Assembly: GCA_043811375.1 (NCBI GenBank)
Contig: JBDRNJ010000004.1
Location: forward strand, 32,001-96,000
Direction of reading: 5' to 3'
Source: a bacterium
GTDB taxonomy: Bacteria > Zixibacteria > MSB-5A5 > GN15 > FEB-12
DNA: 64,000 nt
The notes under the pieces are model-generated. The model ran no database searches and was not told the origin of the DNA. It saw nothing but the letters and a program-made list of their open reading frames with translations. Position 1 is the first letter of the stretch. Each line of letters starts with the position of its first letter. Position numbers and translations under genes: made by a program. Below are positions 2 to 12,064 of this stretch, piece after piece.

Positions 2-3000
2 GCACGTAATTTCAAGAGCGCCATCGCACGCGGCAAGAATTTCCAGCAGCCAATCGCTTTTGAAGGTGGCGTGGCCGCCAATCCCGGCATGACACGCGCC
101 TTTACCGAACTACTGAATCTGCAACCGGGCGAGTTGATAATCCCCCGTCACTATAACGTCATGGGAGCGCTGGGGGCCGCCCTGCTGGCAGAAGAAGAAA
201 AAACTCTGATTGAGAACTTCGATCCTGAGAAGATCACCAGCTATCTCAAATACCTGACCGTCGCTGCCTCCGGTCGGGATGCTCTGTCATTCGATCACCC
301 CGACTCCAAGCATTACAGCACCACTTTGTCACAACGTCCCGGCGACATCGACGGCCTTGAAGTATACCTGGGTATCGACGTCGGCTCGCTGTCGACCAAT
401 GTGGTGCTGATCGATGCCGACCATCGAGTGATCGCCCGTCGCTACCTGATGACCGAAGGTCGGCCGATTGAAGCCGTTCGCCGGGGTCTCAAAGAAATTG
501 GCGATGAAGTCGGTGATCGTGTTGTGGTAATGGCAACCGGTACTACCGGTTCCGGCCGGTACCTGACCGGTGACTTCGTGGGCGCCGACATTGTCCGTAA
601 CGAGATTACAGCCCAGGCCACGGCAGCTATCGACATCGACCCCGAAGTTGACACCATCTTCGAAATCGGTGGCCAGGATTCCAAGTACATCTCGATCGAT
701 AAGCGAGCAGTCGTTGATTTCGAGATGAACAAAGCCTGCGCCGCCGGCACCGGCTCATTCCTGCAGGAACAGGCCGAGAAATTAAGCATCAGGATAGAAA
801 CCGAATTCGGTGAAAAAGCGCTGCGAGCCCAGTGCCCGGTAGGGTGCGGGGAACGCTGCACCGTCTTCATGGAATCGGACTTGGTCGCCCACCAGCGCAG
901 CGGCGCCGGCAAAGATGACCTGGTTGCCGGGCTGGCCTACTCCATCGTCAGCAACTACCTGACTAAAGTGGTCGGCGACCGTCGGATCGGAAAGCACATC
1001 TTTTTTCAGGGTGGCGTCGCCTGGAACAAGGCCGTGGTCGCAGCCTTTGAAAAGCTCATCGGCAAAACCGTAACCGTACCGCCGCATCACGATGTGACCG
1101 GCGCTATCGGAGCAGCTATCCTGGCTCAGGAAGCGACGGCTCAGACGAACTTTGAGACAACCTTCAGGGGATTCGATCTGTATAAGCGGCGCTACCATAT
1201 CGACACCTTTACCTGCGAGGATTGCACCAACCATTGTGAAATACACAAGGTGGATGTTGAAGGTGAAGAGCCGCTGTACTATGGCTCCCGGTGTGAGAAA
1301 TACGATGTGGAGCGGCACTCCGATAAAACCCTGCCGCCCGACTATGTTAAACTGCGTCAAAAACTGCTGTTTAGAAGATATATAAAATTCCCTCGTCCGA
1401 AAAAGGTCAGGGGACGTATCGGTATCCCGCTGGCTCTGCATTTCCTGGATCACTACCCGTTCTGGCGGGCATTCCTGGAGTCGCTTGATTACCAGGTAGT
1501 CAATTCCTCTGTCTCCAATCAGCGGATTGTCGAGGAAGCGCTGGAATTGTTTGTCGCCGAGACCTGCTTCCCTATCAAAATAACCTACGGCCATATCGCC
1601 AACCTGCTGCGCAAAAAAGTGGATGCTATATTCCTGCCGGCTCTTATCAAGGTGAGTGAAGAATCGGATGACAACGAGGACGGCACCTACATCTGTCCCT
1701 ACGTGCAGAGCGTCGGGTCGGCAATAAAAACCGCTTTTGATTTTGAGAAAGCAGGAGTGAAATTCATCAATCCCCCGGTATCCCTGGGGGGCAGCGTAGC
1801 GGATATTAAGCACAAACTCAAGCAACTGGCACCCCATTTCGGACTGTCCGATCGGGAATTGAATCGAGCTGTCGAGGCCGGTCAGAAGGCGTTTGAGGCC
1901 TACAAGACCAGCCTGCGGGAAGAAGGACAGCGGATTCTTGATGACCTGGGTCCCGACGAGAAAGCAGTTGTAATCATCAGCCGACCTTACAACGGCTACG
2001 ACCGCCGACTGTCTCTGGAACTGCCGGCCAAAATACGCCGACTGGGGTTCAAGGCAATCCCGCTTGACTTTCTGCCGCTGGACAATTGCAACGGTGATTT
2101 CTCCTATATGTACTGGCGCTACGGCAAAACGATTCTAACGGCCGGCGACTATATCCGCACGCATCCCAACTTGTTTGCCGTCTATATCACATCTTTTGGT
2201 TGTGGACCGGATTCGTTTATCACCCACTTCTTCCGTAAACGGATGGCGGGCAAACCATATCTGCAACTGGAACTTGATGAGCATTCGGCCGATGCCGGGC
2301 TGATAACCAGATGTGAGGCGTTTTTCGATTCCCTGCGCTTCTATCGTTACCAGCCGCCCGTCAGCAGCTTCAACATAAGTTGCGACGATTTCAGGCCTTT
2401 TGAGAAGACTATCTACATCCCCAATATGTGCGATCATGCCTATGTGCTGCGAGCGGCCTTTGAGCGATTCGGACTGACGGCCAGGGTCCTCGACGAACCG
2501 GATGAAACAACGCTGGATATCGGCAAGAAATTCACCTCCGGTAAGGAATGTTTCCCCTGCGTTATAACAACCGGCGACATGATCAAGAAAATTCGCTCAT
2601 CCGACTGTGATCCCTCTCAGACGGTTTTCTTCATGCCCGGCGCCGACGGTCCCTGTCGATTCGGCCTGTACAGTCAGTTCCACCGCATTATCCTGGATGA
2701 TCTCGGCTACCAACAGACACCGATCTTCTCGCCTAACTCAAAAGATGGCTATTCCGGATTCGGTCTGGAGGGAACAGCCTTCAGAAAACTGGCATGGCAG
2801 GGAATGGTCTTCCTGGACTGCCTGGCCAAACTGCTGCACCGGGTCCGACCTTACGAGATCAACATCGGTGAGACGGAAAAAGCCTACCTGCATTTTCTGC
2901 AGAGGCTGGATCGGACATTAGTCAAAGATGAGTCCCTGAAAACCCTGGCGGAGCAAGCTGCCACTACCTTTGCGAAGATACCGACCCGGCCGGAACGCTT

Positions 3001-3604
3001 CCCCCTGGTAGGTGTGGTGGGCGAGATATTCCTGCGACATAACCGCTATTCCAACAACCACTTGATTGAGAAACTCGAGAAACTGGGCCTGGAAGTTTGG
3101 CTGGCCACGTTCTGCGAATGGCCCATGTACACTTCCCTGGATTATCGCCGTGATGCTTTTCTGAAGCGGAACTGGTCGGAGTTGCTGGAAAGCACGATCC
3201 AGGTATTTTCCCAGAAGCGTCAGGAGCACAAGATCGTCCATGGTTTTGAGCGACATATTGATCTCGTCCACGACTACCCGGTTGAGAAGATGATTCGTCT
3301 GGCTAACCCCTACCTGCCGATTGATTTCAAGGGTGAGGCGATACTGTCGGTGGGCAAAGCTATCGAAATGACTCAGCAGGGTTCTTCCGGAATCGTCAAC
3401 GCCATGCCTTTCAATTGCATGCCCGGCACGGTGGTCTGCTCCCTGTCAAAGAAAATCTCTGACGACCTCAATGGAGTGCCATGGCTGAACATCAGCTATG
3501 AGGGTTTACGCGATTCCGGCGAGGACACGCGGCTGGAAGCGTTTGCCGAACAGGTAAGGGCGTTTGCCCGACAGGAAGGGGCACGCTCGAAGGTCACCCG
3601 GTGA
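2..3604 (+). CDS. CoA-substrate-specific enzyme activase (BadF/BadG/BcrA/BcrD ATPase domains + DUF2229-like region), 5'-truncated by window edge
   Basis: Frame is open from position 2; ASKHA motifs GIDVGSLSTN, EIGGQDSK, CAAGTGSFL and FQGGVA; C-terminal GCGPD and PFNCMP motifs. Confidence 0.9.
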   Translation, partial: ARNFKSAIARGKNFQQPIAFEGGVAANPGMTRAFTELLNLQPGELIIPRHYNVMGALGAALLAEEEKTLIENFDPEKITSYLKYLTVAASGRDALSFDHPDSKHYSTTLSQRPGDIDGLEVYLGIDVGSLSTNVVLIDADHRVIARRYLMTEGRPIEAVRRGLKEIGDEVGDRVVVMATGTTGSGRYLTGDFVGADIVRNEITAQATAAIDIDPEVDTIFEIGGQDSKYISIDKRAVVDFEMNKACAAGTGSFLQEQAEKLSIRIETEFGEKALRAQCPVGCGERCTVFMESDLVAHQRSGAGKDDLVAGLAYSIVSNYLTKVVGDRRIGKHIFFQGGVAWNKAVVAAFEKLIGKTVTVPPHHDVTGAIGAAILAQEATAQTNFETTFRGFDLYKRRYHIDTFTCEDCTNHCEIHKVDVEGEEPLYYGSRCEKYDVERHSDKTLPPDYVKLRQKLLFRRYIKFPRPKKVRGRIGIPLALHFLDHYPFWRAFLESLDYQVVNSSVSNQRIVEEALELFVAETCFPIKITYGHIANLLRKKVDAIFLPALIKVSEESDDNEDGTYICPYVQSVGSAIKTAFDFEKAGVKFINPPVSLGGSVADIKHKLKQLAPHFGLSDRELNRAVEAGQKAFEAYKTSLREEGQRILDDLGPDEKAVVIISRPYNGYDRRLSLELPAKIRRLGFKAIPLDFLPLDNCNGDFSYMYWRYGKTILTAGDYIRTHPNLFAVYITSFGCGPDSFITHFFRKRMAGKPYLQLELDEHSADAGLITRCEAFFDSLRFYRYQPPVSSFNISCDDFRPFEKTIYIPNMCDHAYVLRAAFERFGLTARVLDEPDETTLDIGKKFTSGKECFPCVITTGDMIKKIRSSDCDPSQTVFFMPGADGPCRFGLYSQFHRIILDDLGYQQTPIFSPNSKDGYSGFGLEGTAFRKLAWQGMVFLDCLAKLLHRVRPYEINIGETEKAYLHFLQRLDRTLVKDESLKTLAEQAATTFAKIPTRPERFPLVGVVGEIFLRHNRYSNNHLIEKLEKLGLEVWLATFCEWPMYTSLDYRRDAFLKRNWSELLESTIQVFSQKRQEHKIVHGFERHIDLVHDYPVEKMIRLANPYLPIDFKGEAILSVGKAIEMTQQGSSGIVNAMPFNCMPGTVVCSLSKKISDDLNGVPWLNISYEGLRDSGEDTRLEAFAEQVRAFARQEGARSKVTR

Positions 3605-3743
3605 CACTGACAGCTTACCCTCCGCAGACAATTTGAAAGCTTCATCCTTGTAATAACGAGCGGTAATTGTTATCTTTGGAACCGGCACAGAAATGTGCTG
3701 TTACAAGGTAAAGGAAAGATTGAGATACCAAGCGGAGGAACAA

Positions 3744-4070
3744 ATGAGCAAGCCGATTCATGTCACTGATGATACCTTCGAAGCCGAAGTGGTACAATCG
3801 GACAAAACTGTCATAGTCGATTTCTGGGCCGCCTGGTGTGGCCCCTGTAAAATGATTGCACCCATCCTGGAAGAAGTGGCCGGTGAATACGGTGACCGCG
3901 TGAAGGTTACCAAGGTGGATGTGGACGCTAATAGTGTCGTGGCCGGCAAGTTCGGCATTATGTCGATCCCTTCGTTGCTGTTCTTCAAGAACGGTGAGGA
4001 AGTTGACCGGGTCATCGGCGCCATACCCAAGGCGCAACTGACCTCTCGGCTGGAAAAAGTCCTGGGTTGA
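3744..4070 (+). CDS. trxA: thioredoxin
   Basis: WCGPC active site; ATG at 3744 follows a GGAGG SD. Confidence 0.97.
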
Positions 4071-4292
4071 ATCCGTACCGGAAGTCACCATAACCGGCTT
4101 CGGAAGTTCGGGGTGATCACAAACCGGAGACTGTTATGTCGCGGGGTCGGACGAAATGGCGGCCGCAGAATCGGTGGTACTCTACCTTTTTTTACCGGGT
4201 ACGGTCGGTATGGCAGACCTCAGACCTGTTTCAGCAGACACCGGCATACGGTTCAAATGGCTTGATTTTAAGACGAAAACCTGGGATTATGT

Positions 4293-4463
4293 ATGGGTGA
4301 GTATAGTCTGATTTGGCTGTTGGTGTTTCTGGCGGTCTGGTACCTGCTGCTGAGGAAAGTGCTGCCGCGTTTCGGAATCGGCACCTGACTGTCGAAACCA
4401 TGTGATCTTCTGGAGGAAGACAGACCGATCAAAAACAATGACGGCCCGGCCAAAGGTGAATAA
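4293..4463 (+). CDS. candidate small membrane-anchored selenoprotein (in-frame TGA 4386-4388; UxxxxC)
   Basis: Manual translation MGEYSLIWLLVFLAVWYLLLRKVLPRFGIGT-TGA-LSKPCDLLEEDRPIKNNDGPAKGE-TAA; hairpin TCTTC-TGGAG-GAAGA at 4406-4420. Confidence 0.6.
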
Positions 4464-4519
4464 CTGCCGTTAGATGGTTGTACTTAAATGATTTGGGCCA
4501 ACAACCGATAATACTACCG

Positions 4520-5350
4520 ATGAGGTATTTTCGCTCCAACCGCGAGCCAGCCAGAGGTGGCGTCACTTTCGGCCCGGGTATATTACCGCCTTTTATTAAG
4601 GTGATGATAATCGCCAATGTCATCATCTTCATAATACAGAAATTCTACCCACCATTGATGCTGCACCTGGGACTGGTCCCGGCCAGATTCTTCGCTGAGT
4701 TCCCCAATCTCATCTATCAACCGCTGACCTACATGTTCCTGCACGGCAGCCTGGGACATATCTTCTTTAATATGTTTGCCCTGTGGATGTTCGGTTCCGA
4801 GATCGAACATGGCTGGGGTGCCCGGGTTTTTGGCCGTTTCTATCTTCTGGCCGGGTTGGCCGGAGCACTCTTGTGTCTGATATTTAATGCCTCACAGCCT
4901 TATCCCATCATCGGCGCCTCGGCCGCCATATACGGGATTCTGGCTGCCTACTGGGTGATGTTTCCCAATCGCAAACTCTATCTCTACTTCCTGTTCCCGG
5001 TGAAAGTAAAATGGGCCATCCCGGGCATGATGTTGCTGGGTTTCTTGTTTTCCGCCGGCAACATTGCCCACTTCGCGCACTTGGGGGGTGCTCTGTTCGG
5101 ACTTGCCTATATCAAAACCGACCGGCGCTGGAATTTTCTTTCGGGGTGGTTCAACCGGCGACATCACCGGCGGCAGGAGGTCAAACTGGACCGCAATCGG
5201 CAACAGGCAGAAGACATTATGAAACGGATTGACTCCATTCTGGACAAGATCAACGAAGTCGGCATAGAGAACATCAGTAAGAGCGATCGAAAATTCCTGG
5301 AGGAAGCTTCATCCGAACTGTCCAGAAAAGATTCAGCTAAAGGCAGGTAG
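4520..5350 (+). CDS. rhomboid-family intramembrane serine protease with soluble C-terminal extension
   Basis: YMFLH..HIFFNM, GASA catalytic Ser and AHLGG catalytic His; C-terminal IDSILDKI motif. Confidence 0.92.
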   Translation: MRYFRSNREPARGGVTFGPGILPPFIKVMIIANVIIFIIQKFYPPLMLHLGLVPARFFAEFPNLIYQPLTYMFLHGSLGHIFFNMFALWMFGSEIEHGWGARVFGRFYLLAGLAGALLCLIFNASQPYPIIGASAAIYGILAAYWVMFPNRKLYLYFLFPVKVKWAIPGMMLLGFLFSAGNIAHFAHLGGALFGLAYIKTDRRWNFLSGWFNRRHHRRQEVKLDRNRQQAEDIMKRIDSILDKINEVGIENISKSDRKFLEEASSELSRKDSAKGR

Positions 5351-5356
5351 AAGGCT

Positions 5357-6607
5357 ATGCGTAAGAGGGTATTGCTGGCAGAACAATCGGACGCCATACG
5401 TGGTGTGGCTGAGACGGCATTACGACAAAGTGGCTTTGAGGTGATTTCGGTGGCCACCGCAGAAAAGGCTCTGGAGGTATTGAAGTTCTCCCGACCTGAC
5501 CTGATGATTCTGGGCGGTGAGTTGCAGACCGCCGATCAGAAACCGTTGTATGAAAAGATTCGCACCAATCCGCGGGCCGGGCAGATTTCTATGCTGCTGT
5601 TTGACGACTCGGGGAGTCTGCCGTTCCCGCCGGAGTCAATCATATCGAGACCCTTTGATGCGACACAATTCCTTCAGAAAGTGATGTTGCTCGCCAGCCA
5701 GGCACCAAATACCACGGATAAGCCGGTGATCACTAACCCGCTGGAAGAAGCCAATCTCGATGATGATCTTCTCGATGCTGCCCTCGGCATTGACCAGATT
5801 GACGTTACGGCATCGGAAGTAATGGACAAGACAACCGGAACCAAAAGAAAAGAGCCGAAACCGGCCCACAAGTTTGTGGGCCTGGAACACACCGAGGGTC
5901 AGTACGGAGATGTTAAAGATAGCGGAAAAGTCGAGTCGCTGATGATACGCGATGCCGAGGCTACCGATATACGCAGCAACTCCCGGCCGGATAAGAAAAT
6001 ACTCGCTCCGTCGGCCAGCGGAAAGCTGGACATACTTTCGGATCAGTTTATGATAACTGACCCCAATGCCGTCGACCGGTCGTCGGAAGACCGGTCACAC
6101 GACTACGAATGGTTTATCGACGAGATGCGCAAGGAAGTGAGTGGTTCTTCTGAAACCTCACCCGCCGAGAAAAAACCGGATACTTCGCCGGATTTGAACT
6201 TTTCAGAACCGTCCGCTATGGTCGATCCGGTAACACCGCCGCCGGAGACTCCGGTGAAAGAAACAGCCTCTTCGATCACGGATGGTGGTGTCGACAAGTT
6301 CATCGACGATTTCAAGAAAGAGGTTGAGAAAATCCAGGAAGAGAATCCGCCCGCTGTCAACGTCCCGGCATCTGAACCTCTGAAGACCGAACCGGCACCG
6401 ATCTCGCACCGGCAGCCTGATCGCGTCCTGACTTTAGAGCCGGAACAGGTGGCAGTGTTTACACAACAACTGTGCCGTGAACTGGCCGAAAAGATCGCTG
6501 AAAAGATAGTGGCCCGTATAGATCCGGTTGCGTTGGCCGACTCACTGAAGGAGGAGATTCTCTCCTGCATCAAGCACAACTCACCGGAAGAAGCTTCCAG
6601 GTCCTGA
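5357..6607 (+). CDS. atypical receiver-domain protein with long acidic/Pro-rich linker
   Basis: N-terminal CheY-like pattern (VLLAE...PDLMIL) lacking the canonical phospho-Asp; low-complexity middle; helical C-terminus. Confidence 0.7.
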   Translation: MRKRVLLAEQSDAIRGVAETALRQSGFEVISVATAEKALEVLKFSRPDLMILGGELQTADQKPLYEKIRTNPRAGQISMLLFDDSGSLPFPPESIISRPFDATQFLQKVMLLASQAPNTTDKPVITNPLEEANLDDDLLDAALGIDQIDVTASEVMDKTTGTKRKEPKPAHKFVGLEHTEGQYGDVKDSGKVESLMIRDAEATDIRSNSRPDKKILAPSASGKLDILSDQFMITDPNAVDRSSEDRSHDYEWFIDEMRKEVSGSSETSPAEKKPDTSPDLNFSEPSAMVDPVTPPPETPVKETASSITDGGVDKFIDDFKKEVEKIQEENPPAVNVPASEPLKTEPAPISHRQPDRVLTLEPEQVAVFTQQLCRELAEKIAEKIVARIDPVALADSLKEEILSCIKHNSPEEASRS

Positions 6608-6613
6608 TAATTA

Positions 6614-6789
6614 GAGGTTGTCCCAAAAGTCAACATTGGGTATATTGAACATTGCATCTAACAGATCATCATTCGCTAAACCCGCGTAGCGGCGGGCTTT
6701 ATGTCCGCCGCCGGCATCGCCACTTTTATTGGCGGGAGACAAGCCCCCTCCCTGCGCGCGTCAGAATAATCACCTTTTGAGACAGACTC
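6614..6789. mobile_element. non-autonomous MITE-like element (16-bp imperfect TIRs, AATTA target duplication, internal REP pair)
   Basis: Left end GAGGTTGTCCCAAAAG (6614-6629) vs reverse complement of right end GAGTCTGTCTCAAAAG (6774-6789), 13/16 match; AATTA at 6609-6613 and 6790-6794. Confidence 0.75.
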
Positions 6790-6863: not shown

Positions 6864-8798
6864 ATGTCTATGCAAATAAACGACTCATACTCGTACCGGC
6901 GGTTGCTGACGACTCTGGCTCCGGCAGCTTTTTTGGCACTGCTGGTCTGCCTGCCGGCGGCGCTGGTTGTCCCAACCGCCTGCGCTCAGATTGAATTACC
7001 TTCGCCCGGTGAAACACCGGAAGTGACGATAGTCGAAGTAACGGCGCTGTTCTCCCGCTCGTCGGCACAAATGGGCAAAACCTACGATGCCGCCGTGGTT
7101 GTCTCCGTGAAATCCGGATGGCATATCAATTCGGTCGAACCATACCAGGACTGGCTGATCCCGGCCGATCTGGCTTTTGATCCGATTACCGAATTGATAA
7201 TCGACAGTATTATTTTCCCCGACAGCTATGATGCCCTGTTGACCGGAGAGACTTTTTCAGTTTATGGCGGGCGAAGCGTAATCCGTTTTTCGGTAACTGT
7301 CGCTGCCGATGCACAACCCGGCACCTACCAGCTGCCGATCCGATTCACATACCAGGCCTGCAATGACCGCGAGTGTCGACCGCCGGAAACAATCGAGATG
7401 CAGTTATCCGTTACGGTAGGAACTGAGGGCGCTCCGGTCCACGGCGACGTTTTCGACGCTACCGTCGAAAGCCTGCCTGGAGATGTCGTCGCGGAATCGG
7501 GCACCACCGAAGAAAACTACCTGCAGAGGTTGATTACCGAGCACGGTTTCCTGGGTTACCTGATTGCCCTGGGGATCGCCTTTCTTTCGGGGCTGCTGTT
7601 GTCCTTCTCGCCGTGCACTTACCCGATGATTCCCATCACGGTCAGTATCTTCGCCGGACAGAAACGCGGCATCGGTCGCGGCTTCATGTTGTCCCTGCTG
7701 TATGTCGGTACTATGGCGGTGGTGTACGGCATCATGGGATTGATTGTCTCGCTGGTGGGAGGGGTCTTTGGCGCCTGGCTGGCCAGCACCCCGGTGGTCA
7801 TCGGTATTTCCATTATCTTTGTTATCTTTGCACTATCGATGTTTGGTCTGTACGAACTGCAGGTGCCGTCCTCCATTCGCCAGAAGCTGGGCACGGTGTC
7901 CCGGGGCGGCGGCGTGATGAGTTCGATAGTCCTGGGGTTCGTGGCGGCACTGGTGGTCTCGCCCTGCGTGGGACCATTTGTGGCCGGTATTCTGTTGTAC
8001 GTAGCCACCAGCGGATCACCGCTGGTCGGTTTTTTGGTTCTGTTTGTTTTCGCCATCGGTCTGGGGACGTTATATCTAATCATTGGAACGTTTTCGTCTG
8101 CGATCAGCAATCTGCCCGGAGCCGGCGGGTGGATGGAATCCATCAAGAAGTTCTTTGGGTTTGTCCTATTGCTGATGGCCCTCTATTTCATCCGCACCAT
8201 CATTCCACCCAACATGGTCGCGGTTCTGGCAGGCTTGCTGCTGGTCGCCTTCGGTGTCTTTGGCGGCGGCCTTGATCGATTGACACCGGAATCCGGCTTC
8301 TTCCTGCGGCTGAAGAAGCTCCTGGGTTTGCTGGCCCTGTTGATGGGGGTTTACCTGCTGACGGGTACGCTGATCCGTCAGGGTGTGATTCTGCCACCGG
8401 CATCTCAATGGTTGGCGGTCGGCGAGAACTCCGGCGCCCGGACGGAACTGATCGAGTGGGAAACTGACCTTGAGGCCGGGCTGGCCCGTGCCATGGCTGA
8501 AGGCAAACCGGTAATGATCGACACCTGGGCCACCTGGTGTGTCAACTGCCGCGTGCTGGACACCAAAACCTTCGGTAATCCCGACGTTGCCGGAGAGGCA
8601 ACCCGATTCATCTGTATCAAGGTCCAATTGGAAAAAGCCGACACACCAATATCAAAAAAATTCATGGCTCGCTTCGGTCTTAAACATTACTCGCTGCCGA
8701 CGACACTGTTACTCGATTCGCAGGGGCGGGTGCATCGCACCATCAAGGGCGTCATCGGACCTCGGGAGATGATCGCCGAGATGCGCCGGGTGTCATAG
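6864..8798 (+). CDS. dsbD: DsbD-like thiol:disulfide interchange / cytochrome c biogenesis protein
   Basis: N-terminal Ig-like domain with QACNDREC; TM domain with SPCTYPMIP and SPCVGP; C-terminal thioredoxin WCVNC. Confidence 0.88.
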   Translation: MSMQINDSYSYRRLLTTLAPAAFLALLVCLPAALVVPTACAQIELPSPGETPEVTIVEVTALFSRSSAQMGKTYDAAVVVSVKSGWHINSVEPYQDWLIPADLAFDPITELIIDSIIFPDSYDALLTGETFSVYGGRSVIRFSVTVAADAQPGTYQLPIRFTYQACNDRECRPPETIEMQLSVTVGTEGAPVHGDVFDATVESLPGDVVAESGTTEENYLQRLITEHGFLGYLIALGIAFLSGLLLSFSPCTYPMIPITVSIFAGQKRGIGRGFMLSLLYVGTMAVVYGIMGLIVSLVGGVFGAWLASTPVVIGISIIFVIFALSMFGLYELQVPSSIRQKLGTVSRGGGVMSSIVLGFVAALVVSPCVGPFVAGILLYVATSGSPLVGFLVLFVFAIGLGTLYLIIGTFSSAISNLPGAGGWMESIKKFFGFVLLLMALYFIRTIIPPNMVAVLAGLLLVAFGVFGGGLDRLTPESGFFLRLKKLLGLLALLMGVYLLTGTLIRQGVILPPASQWLAVGENSGARTELIEWETDLEAGLARAMAEGKPVMIDTWATWCVNCRVLDTKTFGNPDVAGEATRFICIKVQLEKADTPISKKFMARFGLKHYSLPTTLLLDSQGRVHRTIKGVIGPREMIAEMRRVS

Positions 8799-10521: not shown

Positions 10522-11184
10522 ATGAAAGAAACTTACTTCACAACTGAGTCCATCGAACGGAAAGCAACCGAACTGCTGCGCCGGACGCAACATATCAGTC
10601 GCGGCAGTATTGACAATCTCCGGCCACGCCGGTCGGCACTGCTGATCATGGACATGCAGAAGTATTTCCTTAAGCCCGATTCCCACGCCTTTATCCCCAG
10701 CGCCGGAGCCATTCTCCCCGGCCTGACGGAACTCCTCCGGGAATACCACCAGCGGTCCCTGCCGGTCTTTCTGACACGGCATACCAACACTGCCGCCAAT
10801 GCCGGACGCATGGCCGACTGGTGGCAGGAGTTGATCTGTCCGGATGATCCGCTGAGTGAACTAAACAATGAATTGACAGCGGTCGGTGGGGTCATTTTGG
10901 AAAAGAATCAGTACGATGCCTTTCATGGAACCCGGCTGGAGGAAACGTTGCGGACACGGCAGGTCACCCAGATCGTTATCGGCGGTTTAATGACCCATCT
11001 ATGCTGTGAGACAACGGCCCGTTCGGCGTTTTGCCGCGGATTCGAGGTCTTTTTCACAGTTGACGGAACCGCCACGTACAACGAACAGTTCCACCGGGCA
11101 TCCCTGCAAAACCTGGCCCACGGTTTCGCCACGATGGTATCAGTGCCACAACTGTTGGCGGTCCTGAGGAATCATGCCGATTGA
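10522..11184 (+). CDS. isochorismatase-family cysteine hydrolase
   Basis: DMQKYF, K(NQ)YDAF and HLCCETTAR provide the Asp-Lys-Cys triad. Confidence 0.92.
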   Translation: MKETYFTTESIERKATELLRRTQHISRGSIDNLRPRRSALLIMDMQKYFLKPDSHAFIPSAGAILPGLTELLREYHQRSLPVFLTRHTNTAANAGRMADWWQELICPDDPLSELNNELTAVGGVILEKNQYDAFHGTRLEETLRTRQVTQIVIGGLMTHLCCETTARSAFCRGFEVFFTVDGTATYNEQFHRASLQNLAHGFATMVSVPQLLAVLRNHAD

Positions 11185-12064
11185 AGACGTCATCATAGTC
11201 GGCGCCGGACCGGCCGGTATCGCTGCTGCCATCCAGTTACGTCGTCAGGGTCTCGATCCGGTCATCATTGAGAAAAACAAAATTGGAGGGCTGCTGCATA
11301 ATGCCGGTCTCGTGGAAAACTACCCGGGCTTTCCCGACAGCATCACCGGCCCAAACCTGGTTGTCCAACTCGAAAAGCAGTTAACTCAATACAAGCCCCG
11401 TCTCGTTTTCGAGGAAGTCTGGTCAGTCAACTTCGACAATAGCCGGTTCGCCGTCTCGACACCCCGGCAGACGATTCTGTCGCGCACCCTGCTGGTCGCT
11501 TCCGGCACCAGCGCTCGATTGTTTACCGATATAAAGGTCCCCGCCGAGTGCCGGAATCGCATTTTGTACGAAGTCTGGCCCATTCGAGAAGTTGAGGGCA
11601 AGGATATCGCCATTGTGGGTTCCGGGGATGCCGCCTTTGACTACGCCCTCAGCCTGGTACCCCGCAATCGAGTGACGATCCTCAATCGCAGTGTCGTTAC
11701 ACGATGTCTGCCTCTGCTTAAGGATCGTGTCCAACAATCAGCCTATGCCACTTACCGTCCCGATACTCGCCTGACCGAAATCAAGAGCGAGGGGTCCGAA
11801 AAGCTGCGCCTGGAGTGCCGAAATCGGGGTGAGGTCGAGACCCTTGTCGTTGACTACCTGTTGCCGGCTGTGGGTCGAAAGCCCCAACTCGGTTTTCTCG
11901 CCCCGCAATTGACGGGGTGTCAGGAAGAGTTGATCCGGGAGGGACTTCTTTACTTTGCCGGAGATGTGAAAAACGGTACTTTCCGCCAAACCGGAATCGC
12001 TGTCGGCGACGGAATAATGTCGGCTATGAAAATAGCTCGTAAGGTCGGGAGAGAAGCACCATGA
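11174..12064 (+). CDS. TrxB-like NAD(P)/FAD-dependent oxidoreductase lacking the redox CxxC
   Basis: GAGPAG, VENYPGF, GSGDAA and FAGD motifs; no CxxC before the NAD(P) site. Confidence 0.85.
   Translation: MPIEDVIIVGAGPAGIAAAIQLRRQGLDPVIIEKNKIGGLLHNAGLVENYPGFPDSITGPNLVVQLEKQLTQYKPRLVFEEVWSVNFDNSRFAVSTPRQTILSRTLLVASGTSARLFTDIKVPAECRNRILYEVWPIREVEGKDIAIVGSGDAAFDYALSLVPRNRVTILNRSVVTRCLPLLKDRVQQSAYATYRPDTRLTEIKSEGSEKLRLECRNRGEVETLVVDYLLPAVGRKPQLGFLAPQLTGCQEELIREGLLYFAGDVKNGTFRQTGIAVGDGIMSAMKIARKVGREAP

Follow-up and report, generated by a model that had tools for sequence, protein, structure and literature searches.

A small reading frame between trxA and a rhomboid gene

The window, the whole 64,000-nucleotide stretch of DNA analysed here, carries a thioredoxin gene followed on the same strand by a rhomboid protease gene, and the interval between them holds a short reading frame that starts at ATG 4293, runs for 31 codons to an in-frame TGA at 4386–4388, continues through 24 further sense codons and closes with a TAA ending at 4463. 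With the TGA read as selenocysteine (U) the product has 56 residues. A preliminary description of this DNA had pointed to the reading frame, to a Cys codon five codons past the TGA and to a helix with a basic end; all three were recovered, the Cys codon as TGT 4401–4403 and the helix as a hydrophobic stretch that is predicted to be a membrane anchor. The features of the locus are as follows.

3744–4070, + strand: trxA, thioredoxin (WCGPC), the upstream neighbour in 55 of 60 own-phylum loci
4173–4193, + strand: terminator-like hairpin with a T run in the interval between trxA and the gene, a chance-level feature (2 found, 1.9 expected)
4293–4463, + strand: candidate selenoprotein gene, 56 residues, ATG to TAA with an in-frame TGA as codon 32
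4302–4364, + strand: predicted hydrophobic helix, residues ~4–24, with core Y4–L20, invariant W16 and basic R21/K22 (alignment, AF2 model, charge bias)
4362–4385, + strand: L-P-x-x-G-x-x-T turn ahead of the Sec site, P25 invariant and G28 in at least 90% (alignments)
4386–4388, + strand: TGA, likely selenocysteine 32; a Cys codon in other members (family alignment)
4401–4403, + strand: Cys37 of UxxxxC (TGT codon), present in 50 of 60 own-phylum copies
4404–4460, + strand: charged low-complexity tail, little conserved and predicted to be disordered (alignment, AF2 model)
4406–4420, + strand: bSECIS-type hairpin, stem 4406–4411/4415–4420, loop GGA 4412–4414 (consensus model of PMC13188914)
4520–5350, + strand: rhomboid protease with a DUF6576 tail and intact catalytic Ser and His motifs, the downstream neighbour in 51 of 60 own-phylum loci

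Judged in this genome alone, the reading frame, TGA and hairpin are weak evidence. Many TGA stops are followed by an open tail, with at least 15 further sense codons after 441 of the 773 long TGA-ended reading frames of the genome; fewer of them, 17 of 773, have a Cys at +5. The finding stands above chance because of the family evidence given below, and 4293–4463 is a real gene. No conserved promoter or Shine–Dalgarno motif was found upstream of the gene. The numbers of promoters and terminators counted did not exceed those expected by chance.

The family and the codon at the probable selenocysteine site

A single-sequence protein search with the reading frame gave no candidate. We built a family profile from an alignment of 29 close relatives, and with it 154 of the 285 genomes in the phylum of the source genome gave a match; an in-frame TGA is present in 149 of 150 own-phylum matches among the matches listed. 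The single exception (L050; G153:C32, ~6570–6710, − strand) lacks an in-frame start, has an altered motif and TGG at the Sec site, and still carries a hairpin-like stretch; it is likely a decaying gene. For closer analysis we assembled 60 non-redundant own-phylum loci from the best matches and hand-picked weaker ones, leaving out 17 duplicate loci, the degenerate L050, a weak non-match (L068) and L049, a spurious locus from the metagenome scan that was discarded. Among these 60 extracted copies the codon at the aligned site was TGA in every one, and TAA or TAG, which the preliminary description had named as evidence against a selenoprotein, occurred in none. Conservation also extends past the TGA, as that description had proposed to check: Cys is present at +5 in 50 of the 60 copies versus 17 of 773 after true TGA stops, the query used for ranking having itself borne the Cys, and a stop codon is reached 15–43 codons after the TGA.

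The family reaches well beyond this phylum. Relatives were found in 66 of 151 sampled Desulfobacterota by a profile search that did not demand the second Cys, with an in-frame TGA in 64 of the 67 listed matches (the three weakest being without it), and in 9 of 121 Planctomycetota genomes, as eight TGA forms and the Cys-form centre genome. A scan of a genome collection with a degenerate DNA pattern gave an estimated 1,600 matching stretches; the pattern required Cys at +5 and allowed only TGA, TGC or TGT at the site, and is thus blind to TAA, TAG and downstream conservation. Of this estimated total, 120 pattern loci were retrieved, 110 with TGA and 10 with TGC or TGT, all with a hydrophobic stretch upstream, from records assigned to Desulfobacterota, Planctomycetota, Acidobacteriota, KSB1, Spirochaetes, Anaerolineales, Armatimonadota, Obscuribacterales and others. 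Cultured carriers include Pelotalea chapellei DSM 13688, Geobacter sp. OR-1 and Thermodesulfatator autotrophicus S606.

A protein search of 1.84 billion representatives returned 304 matches at E ≤ 0.001. Among 165 stored proteins, 77 besides the query have Cys at the site, 21 have W and 4 have G, 8 have another residue or could not be placed, and 54 end there; the W and G residues are probably TGA translated under other codes. Together with the 10 pattern loci, the 77 proteins supply the homologs with Cys aligned to the TGA that the preliminary description had suggested looking for, and in a comparison of two alignments (A1 against A2) that tested the alignment of Cys homologs to the UGA the probability was 99.7. 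The expectation that gene callers would miss the gene held in part: 54 of the 165 stored proteins stop exactly before the TGA position, mostly at 31 residues, so that the databases carry the family as a truncated 31-residue hypothetical protein. These short entries, and the frequency of open tails after TGA stops in the genome, speak for a true stop, the product then being a 31-residue membrane peptide; the Cys interchange, the uniform absence of TAA and TAG and the excess of Cys at +5 all argue against such a stop.

Members of the family are ~45–70 residues long and share one layout: a hydrophobic helix, LPxxGxxT, the TGA, four residues and Cys. W16, P25 and the Sec/Cys site do not vary across the 29 close relatives aligned, and the aligned Cys forms, which often have extra Cys residues beyond the motif, all share P, G and both Cys. 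The AF2 model of a Cys homolog is a single helix (residues 2–25) with a low-confidence tail. A thioredoxin-like fold with UxxC or CxxU is absent, since there is one helix only and the spacing is UxxxxC; the PDB gave no match by fold comparison and none by profile, where the best hit (E 0.067) was an unrelated receptor helix. A weak search for longer, fused family forms found none.

Net charge is −1.3 before the helix and +1.9 after it, and the C side of the helix is the more positive in 56 of 60 own-phylum copies and 104 of 109 other TGA copies. By the positive-inside rule, the positively charged flank is expected on the cytoplasmic side. The helix is therefore predicted to lie N-out/C-in, and is likely a membrane anchor with the Sec/Cys pair facing the cytoplasm. 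Because the hydrophobic core is short (~17 residues), it could also be a peripheral helix in place of a membrane-spanning one. The tail, with its little conserved sequence, likely exists partly as a carrier of the SECIS element.

The downstream hairpin and probable selenocysteine decoding

As set out in PMC13188914, a bSECIS element has a loop of 3–9 nt with G in one of its first two positions, on a stem of 4–16 bp, 16–37 nt after the UGA. We applied the loop, stem and spacing rules of that source with a looser energy limit (stem ≤ −3 kcal/mol), the published limit being −7.5 kcal/mol. The hairpin of the preliminary description, TCTTC-TGGAG-GAAGA, is present at 4406–4420 with its loop 22 nt past the TGA, but the register that most relatives use, TCTTCT-GGA-GGAAGA, describes it better; this has a 6-bp stem and a loop 23 nt after the TGA, the commonest loop start in the family. 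The proposed extension of the stem by flanking CTG/CAG was not borne out: it is absent from the predicted folds, and pairing outside the 7-bp upper stem occurs in only 10 of 60 relatives. The 55-nt region after the TGA reaches −8.9 kcal/mol, although in another fold, and the hairpin alone −3.5 kcal/mol; the region is no more stable than its shuffles (z −0.23). Rfam gave no match over 3600–4700, a further point in favour of a true stop.

The comparison across the family was far more telling than folding of the single sequence. A hairpin follows the TGA in 57 of 60 own-phylum copies, when 7.4 are expected under synonymous recoding, and in 102 of 109 other TGA copies (21.4 expected); among Cys copies it occurs in 2 of 10, when 1.8 are expected. 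One locus ended by a contig end (L170) was left out of the hairpin and tail counts. Stem letters vary on both sides, pair 21–29 being TA in 27, CG in 16 and TG in 3 of 60 copies. With the register held fixed, pair counts at several positions were not clearly higher than in slid controls, since the stems consist of purine/pyrimidine runs and are not always in the same register; our SECIS inference is based on the per-sequence hairpin test and not on these counts.

One contig assembled from groundwater RNA (library X1; 495 nt, depth 3.45) covers 3977–4471 with one difference, a C at 4411, which restores both the closing C–G pair commonest in the family and the consensus Pro; at such depth the difference may be an error, and the contig, which shows neither strand nor level, does not prove transcription. 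In two other RNA runs (X2 and X3) the gene was not covered.

The genome encodes selA, selB, selD and tRNA-Sec, all above curated cut-offs, and selD itself has one in-frame TGA; the set of selA, selB, selC and selD that the preliminary description had proposed to look for is thus complete. Within the phylum selA is near-universal (258 of 285 genomes), so that a contrast by Sec trait is not possible there, and the selenoproteome of this little-studied phylum may hold more unannotated genes. We examined selB at 50 of the 120 pattern loci, comprising all 10 Cys forms and 40 chosen TGA forms. Of the 40 TGA-form genomes 36 gave a selB match, versus 4 of 10 Cys-form genomes (Fisher p 0.002, from genomes that are incomplete and, where related, not independent), leaving as exceptions four TGA-form genomes with no selB match and four Cys-form genomes with one. 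A metagenome-assembled record labelled Flavobacterium psychrophilum (L172), possibly misbinned or mislabelled, holds a TGA form beside a CoA-disulfide reductase–rhodanese gene, and selB was not found in it.

The interchange of TGA and Cys, the hairpin tied to the TGA form, the bias in selB and the presence of the machinery together make decoding of the internal TGA as selenocysteine very likely; the selenoprotein proposed in the preliminary description is thereby supported, none of the findings it had listed as contrary having emerged. A true stop, against which the hairpin and the selB bias now also weigh, is correspondingly most improbable. Scarcely easier to credit is a selenium-sensing leader, in which a ribosome at the UGA would tune the downstream gene and the peptide would matter little: the reading frame is very short, its tail is unconserved and a same-strand downstream gene often lies within ~100 nt, yet the protein sequence is under strong selection, the hairpin-less Cys forms retain the same protein motif, and the downstream gene varies by lineage and is often on the opposite strand.

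Neighbouring genes, related systems and possible function

The order trxA–gene–rhomboid is found in 51 of the 60 own-phylum loci. In other families of the order (L024, L026, L028, L035, L038–L040 and related loci) trxA and the small gene are separated by a CoA_binding_2 gene. Farther out in the window, a protein at 5357–6607 (+), with a receiver-like domain and then ~300 residues without a family match, follows the rhomboid at 48 of the 60 own-phylum loci, and an 1177-residue protein of acyl-CoA dehydratase activase type (71–3604, +) lies directly before trxA, as it does in many relatives.

Outside the phylum no single neighbour family is widely shared. We analysed the neighbours of 80 pattern-scan loci with long flanks, where a thioredoxin gene lies within 3 kb in 3 and a rhomboid gene in none. 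Of 138 adjacent same-strand reading frames in pattern-scan loci, 69 had a Pfam match, and 25 of these 69 were of thiol-redox or sulfane-sulfur types: YgaP-like TM and ArsR (5 each), thioredoxin and Pyr_redox_2 (3 each), redoxin/AhpC (2), and DsbD_TM, OsmC, DsrE, TauE, MBL-rhodanese, BLH phosphatase-like and C_GCAxxG (1 each). The same types made up 1 of 34 in the rest of the window (p 2e-4), a crude control given that the category was drawn after the list had been seen and that the background is one window from another phylum. Twice the family domain runs in frame into a thioredoxin, once as a TGA form (L117:2935–3453, +, a Pirellulales record) and once as a Cys form (protein P0099). The thioredoxin of L117 retains its own Met and that of P0099 seems to carry a frameshift at its end; in either case two adjacent genes may have lost the stop between them by chance.

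The widespread one-helix family appears to be unnamed, in agreement with the preliminary description, which had recognised no named family. Across the member sets examined (29, 40 and 25 members for NCBIfam), the family domain matched no Pfam model and no NCBIfam model (June 2026), P0099 matching NCBIfam only through its thioredoxin part, and the models for TsoA, TsoB, KCU-star, the hypothetical DG, DW and DF proteins and other NCBIfam selenoproteins likewise gave no match to the domain. The ESM Atlas held one unnamed cluster of 123 members, most commonly from Planctomycetota, and no named cluster. FeoB-associated Cys-rich membrane proteins (PF12669) resemble the family in being small, with one N-terminal helix followed by cysteines, but membership was rejected: 3 of 29 members touch the model, far below cut-off (best E 0.28), there is no feoB among the identified neighbours and the motif differs. 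In the literature searched we found no description, and candidate lists, supplements and the contents of BSepDB could hold the family. Among the 119 bacterial selenoprotein families in Table 1 of a 2026 review (PMC13188914) a lone helix with UxxxxC was not recognisable, and the available text of PMC12013277 and of PMC13326102 contained no such family. With the bSECIS selenoproteins of the 2026 review the family shares the in-frame UGA, the pairs of Sec and Cys homologs, a G-led apical loop 16–37 nt downstream and selA/B/C/D, whereas most of the families listed there are thioredoxin-like or otherwise globular. Unusual Sec spacing is also known from TsoA (LULAxC, NF045695) and TsoB (UxxxxU, NF045694), the latter with the same four-residue gap; going by the table and the library entry, however, TsoB is a 572-position rhodanese/DsbD fusion, and neither model matches a member of the family.

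What the protein does can be approached through its company. The neighbours in Planctomycetota, Desulfobacterota and other groups include gene types of the sulfane-sulfur clusters, which comprise persulfide dioxygenase, rhodanese, DUF442, YgaP, TauE and ArsR-type regulators (PMC9163753); rhodaneses, DUF442 and persulfide dioxygenase act in sulfane-sulfur handling, with thioredoxin as a sulfane acceptor (PMC9163753). The family differs from such clusters in having no rhodanese fold, and the available text of PMC9163753 mentions no small Sec protein. Taken with these roles, the neighbour types lead us to favour a membrane-tethered Sec/Cys redox relay recharged by thioredoxin, a function to which we give about an even chance. 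SelB would decode the TGA as selenocysteine at the hairpin ~23 nt downstream, and the helix would insert N-out/C-in, placing Sec32 just beyond the Pro-Gly turn at the cytoplasmic face. There its selenolate could attack a disulfide, persulfide or polysulfide at or in the membrane, or possibly a peroxide; Cys37 would resolve the adduct into a selenenyl-sulfide ring, and cytoplasmic TrxA would reduce the ring. Cys37 would be optional in this scheme, since 10 of 60 copies lack it. The partnership with thioredoxin suggested in the preliminary description thus draws on synteny (trxA at 55 of 60 own-phylum loci) and the two in-frame fusions, whereas a choice between its redox and metal-binding functions can be argued by inference only.

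The ArsR regulators, found in 14 pattern-scan loci, fit metal sensing equally well, and the Sec/Cys pair might instead bind a soft metal, a metalloid or an Fe–S centre, alone or as a dimer, acting as a membrane-side chaperone or as the sensor of a transporter. Scattered NikR, FUR, cation-efflux and CusB-like neighbours, the additional Cys after the motif in many Cys forms and the faint PF12669 similarity (E 0.28 or worse) would suit such a role. We nevertheless regard it as unlikely: thiol and sulfur genes outnumber metal transport genes among the neighbours, FeoB or a metal ATPase is found in none of those identified, and a second Cys missing from 10 of 60 TGA copies is a poor match to a fixed two-ligand site; its loss fits an optional resolving residue better.

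The adjoining rhomboid gene, with its intact Ser and His motifs, suggests a further role by analogy: the protein might serve a membrane quality-control complex, for instance the rhomboid, as its redox-switched subunit, adaptor or substrate, much as eukaryotic SELENOK or SELENOS serves Derlin. Derlins are members of the rhomboid superfamily. SELENOK, which binds derlin (10.1101/2021.05.15.444318), and SELENOS are laid out like the family, with a short N-terminal segment, a single hydrophobic helix and then a charged, disordered cytosolic tail that bears Sec (here by prediction), and the invariant W16 and P25 suggest a packing surface; the tie to a rhomboid is here one of synteny in one phylum. 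However, Sec lies at the extreme C-terminus of SELENOK (U92 of 94) and SELENOS (U188 of 189; 10.1101/2021.05.15.444318), whereas here it sits beside the helix, ~8 residues past its end, with at least 15 codons after the TGA in all complete copies, in a protein of about half their size or less. The SelK and SelS models show no sequence similarity (neither turns up among the Pfam matches with E ≤ 1), and membership of either family was rejected on Sec position and sequence. With no rhomboid within 3 kb at any of the 80 pattern-scan loci, the link may be plain synteny of one lineage, and we consider the quality-control role unlikely. Equally speculative is a combined scheme in which a minimal membrane selenopeptide would couple cytoplasmic thioredoxin to membrane sulfur or disulfide chemistry and, in its own phylum, form a redox-gated quality-control module with the rhomboid.

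Whichever function applies, a selenoprotein family widespread in Desulfobacterota and in the phylum of the source genome seems to be missing from current inventories. If the selenocysteine reading is correct, it would be one of the more widespread bacterial selenoprotein families, as yet unnamed, among the smallest of bacterial selenoproteins and without a globular domain, a counterpart in design of SELENOK and SELENOS. The role of Sec in such a tail is still open for human SELENOK (10.1101/2021.05.15.444318), and a protein that can be synthesised, has natural Cys variants and occurs in cultured carriers would allow a direct test of what Sec does in an unstructured, membrane-bound tail. The family also offers ~170 SECIS hairpins from nature, for which the Cys forms are a matched control.

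Several neighbouring genes deserve mention in their own right. A small FmdB-type zinc-ribbon gene lies upstream at six Desulfobacterota loci (L099, L112, L143, L145, L155 and L176), and this zinc-ribbon family is itself listed as a selenoprotein family (PMC13188914). Five planctomycete Cys forms (L102, L104, L116, L167 and L175) are preceded by a zf-HC2 (anti-sigma-type zinc finger) reading frame and followed by a YgaP-like TM reading frame. In the window, a DsbD-like protein-disulfide reductase (6864–8798, +) is encoded on the same strand 2.4 kb downstream of the gene, and a TrxB-like flavoprotein lies at 11174–12064.
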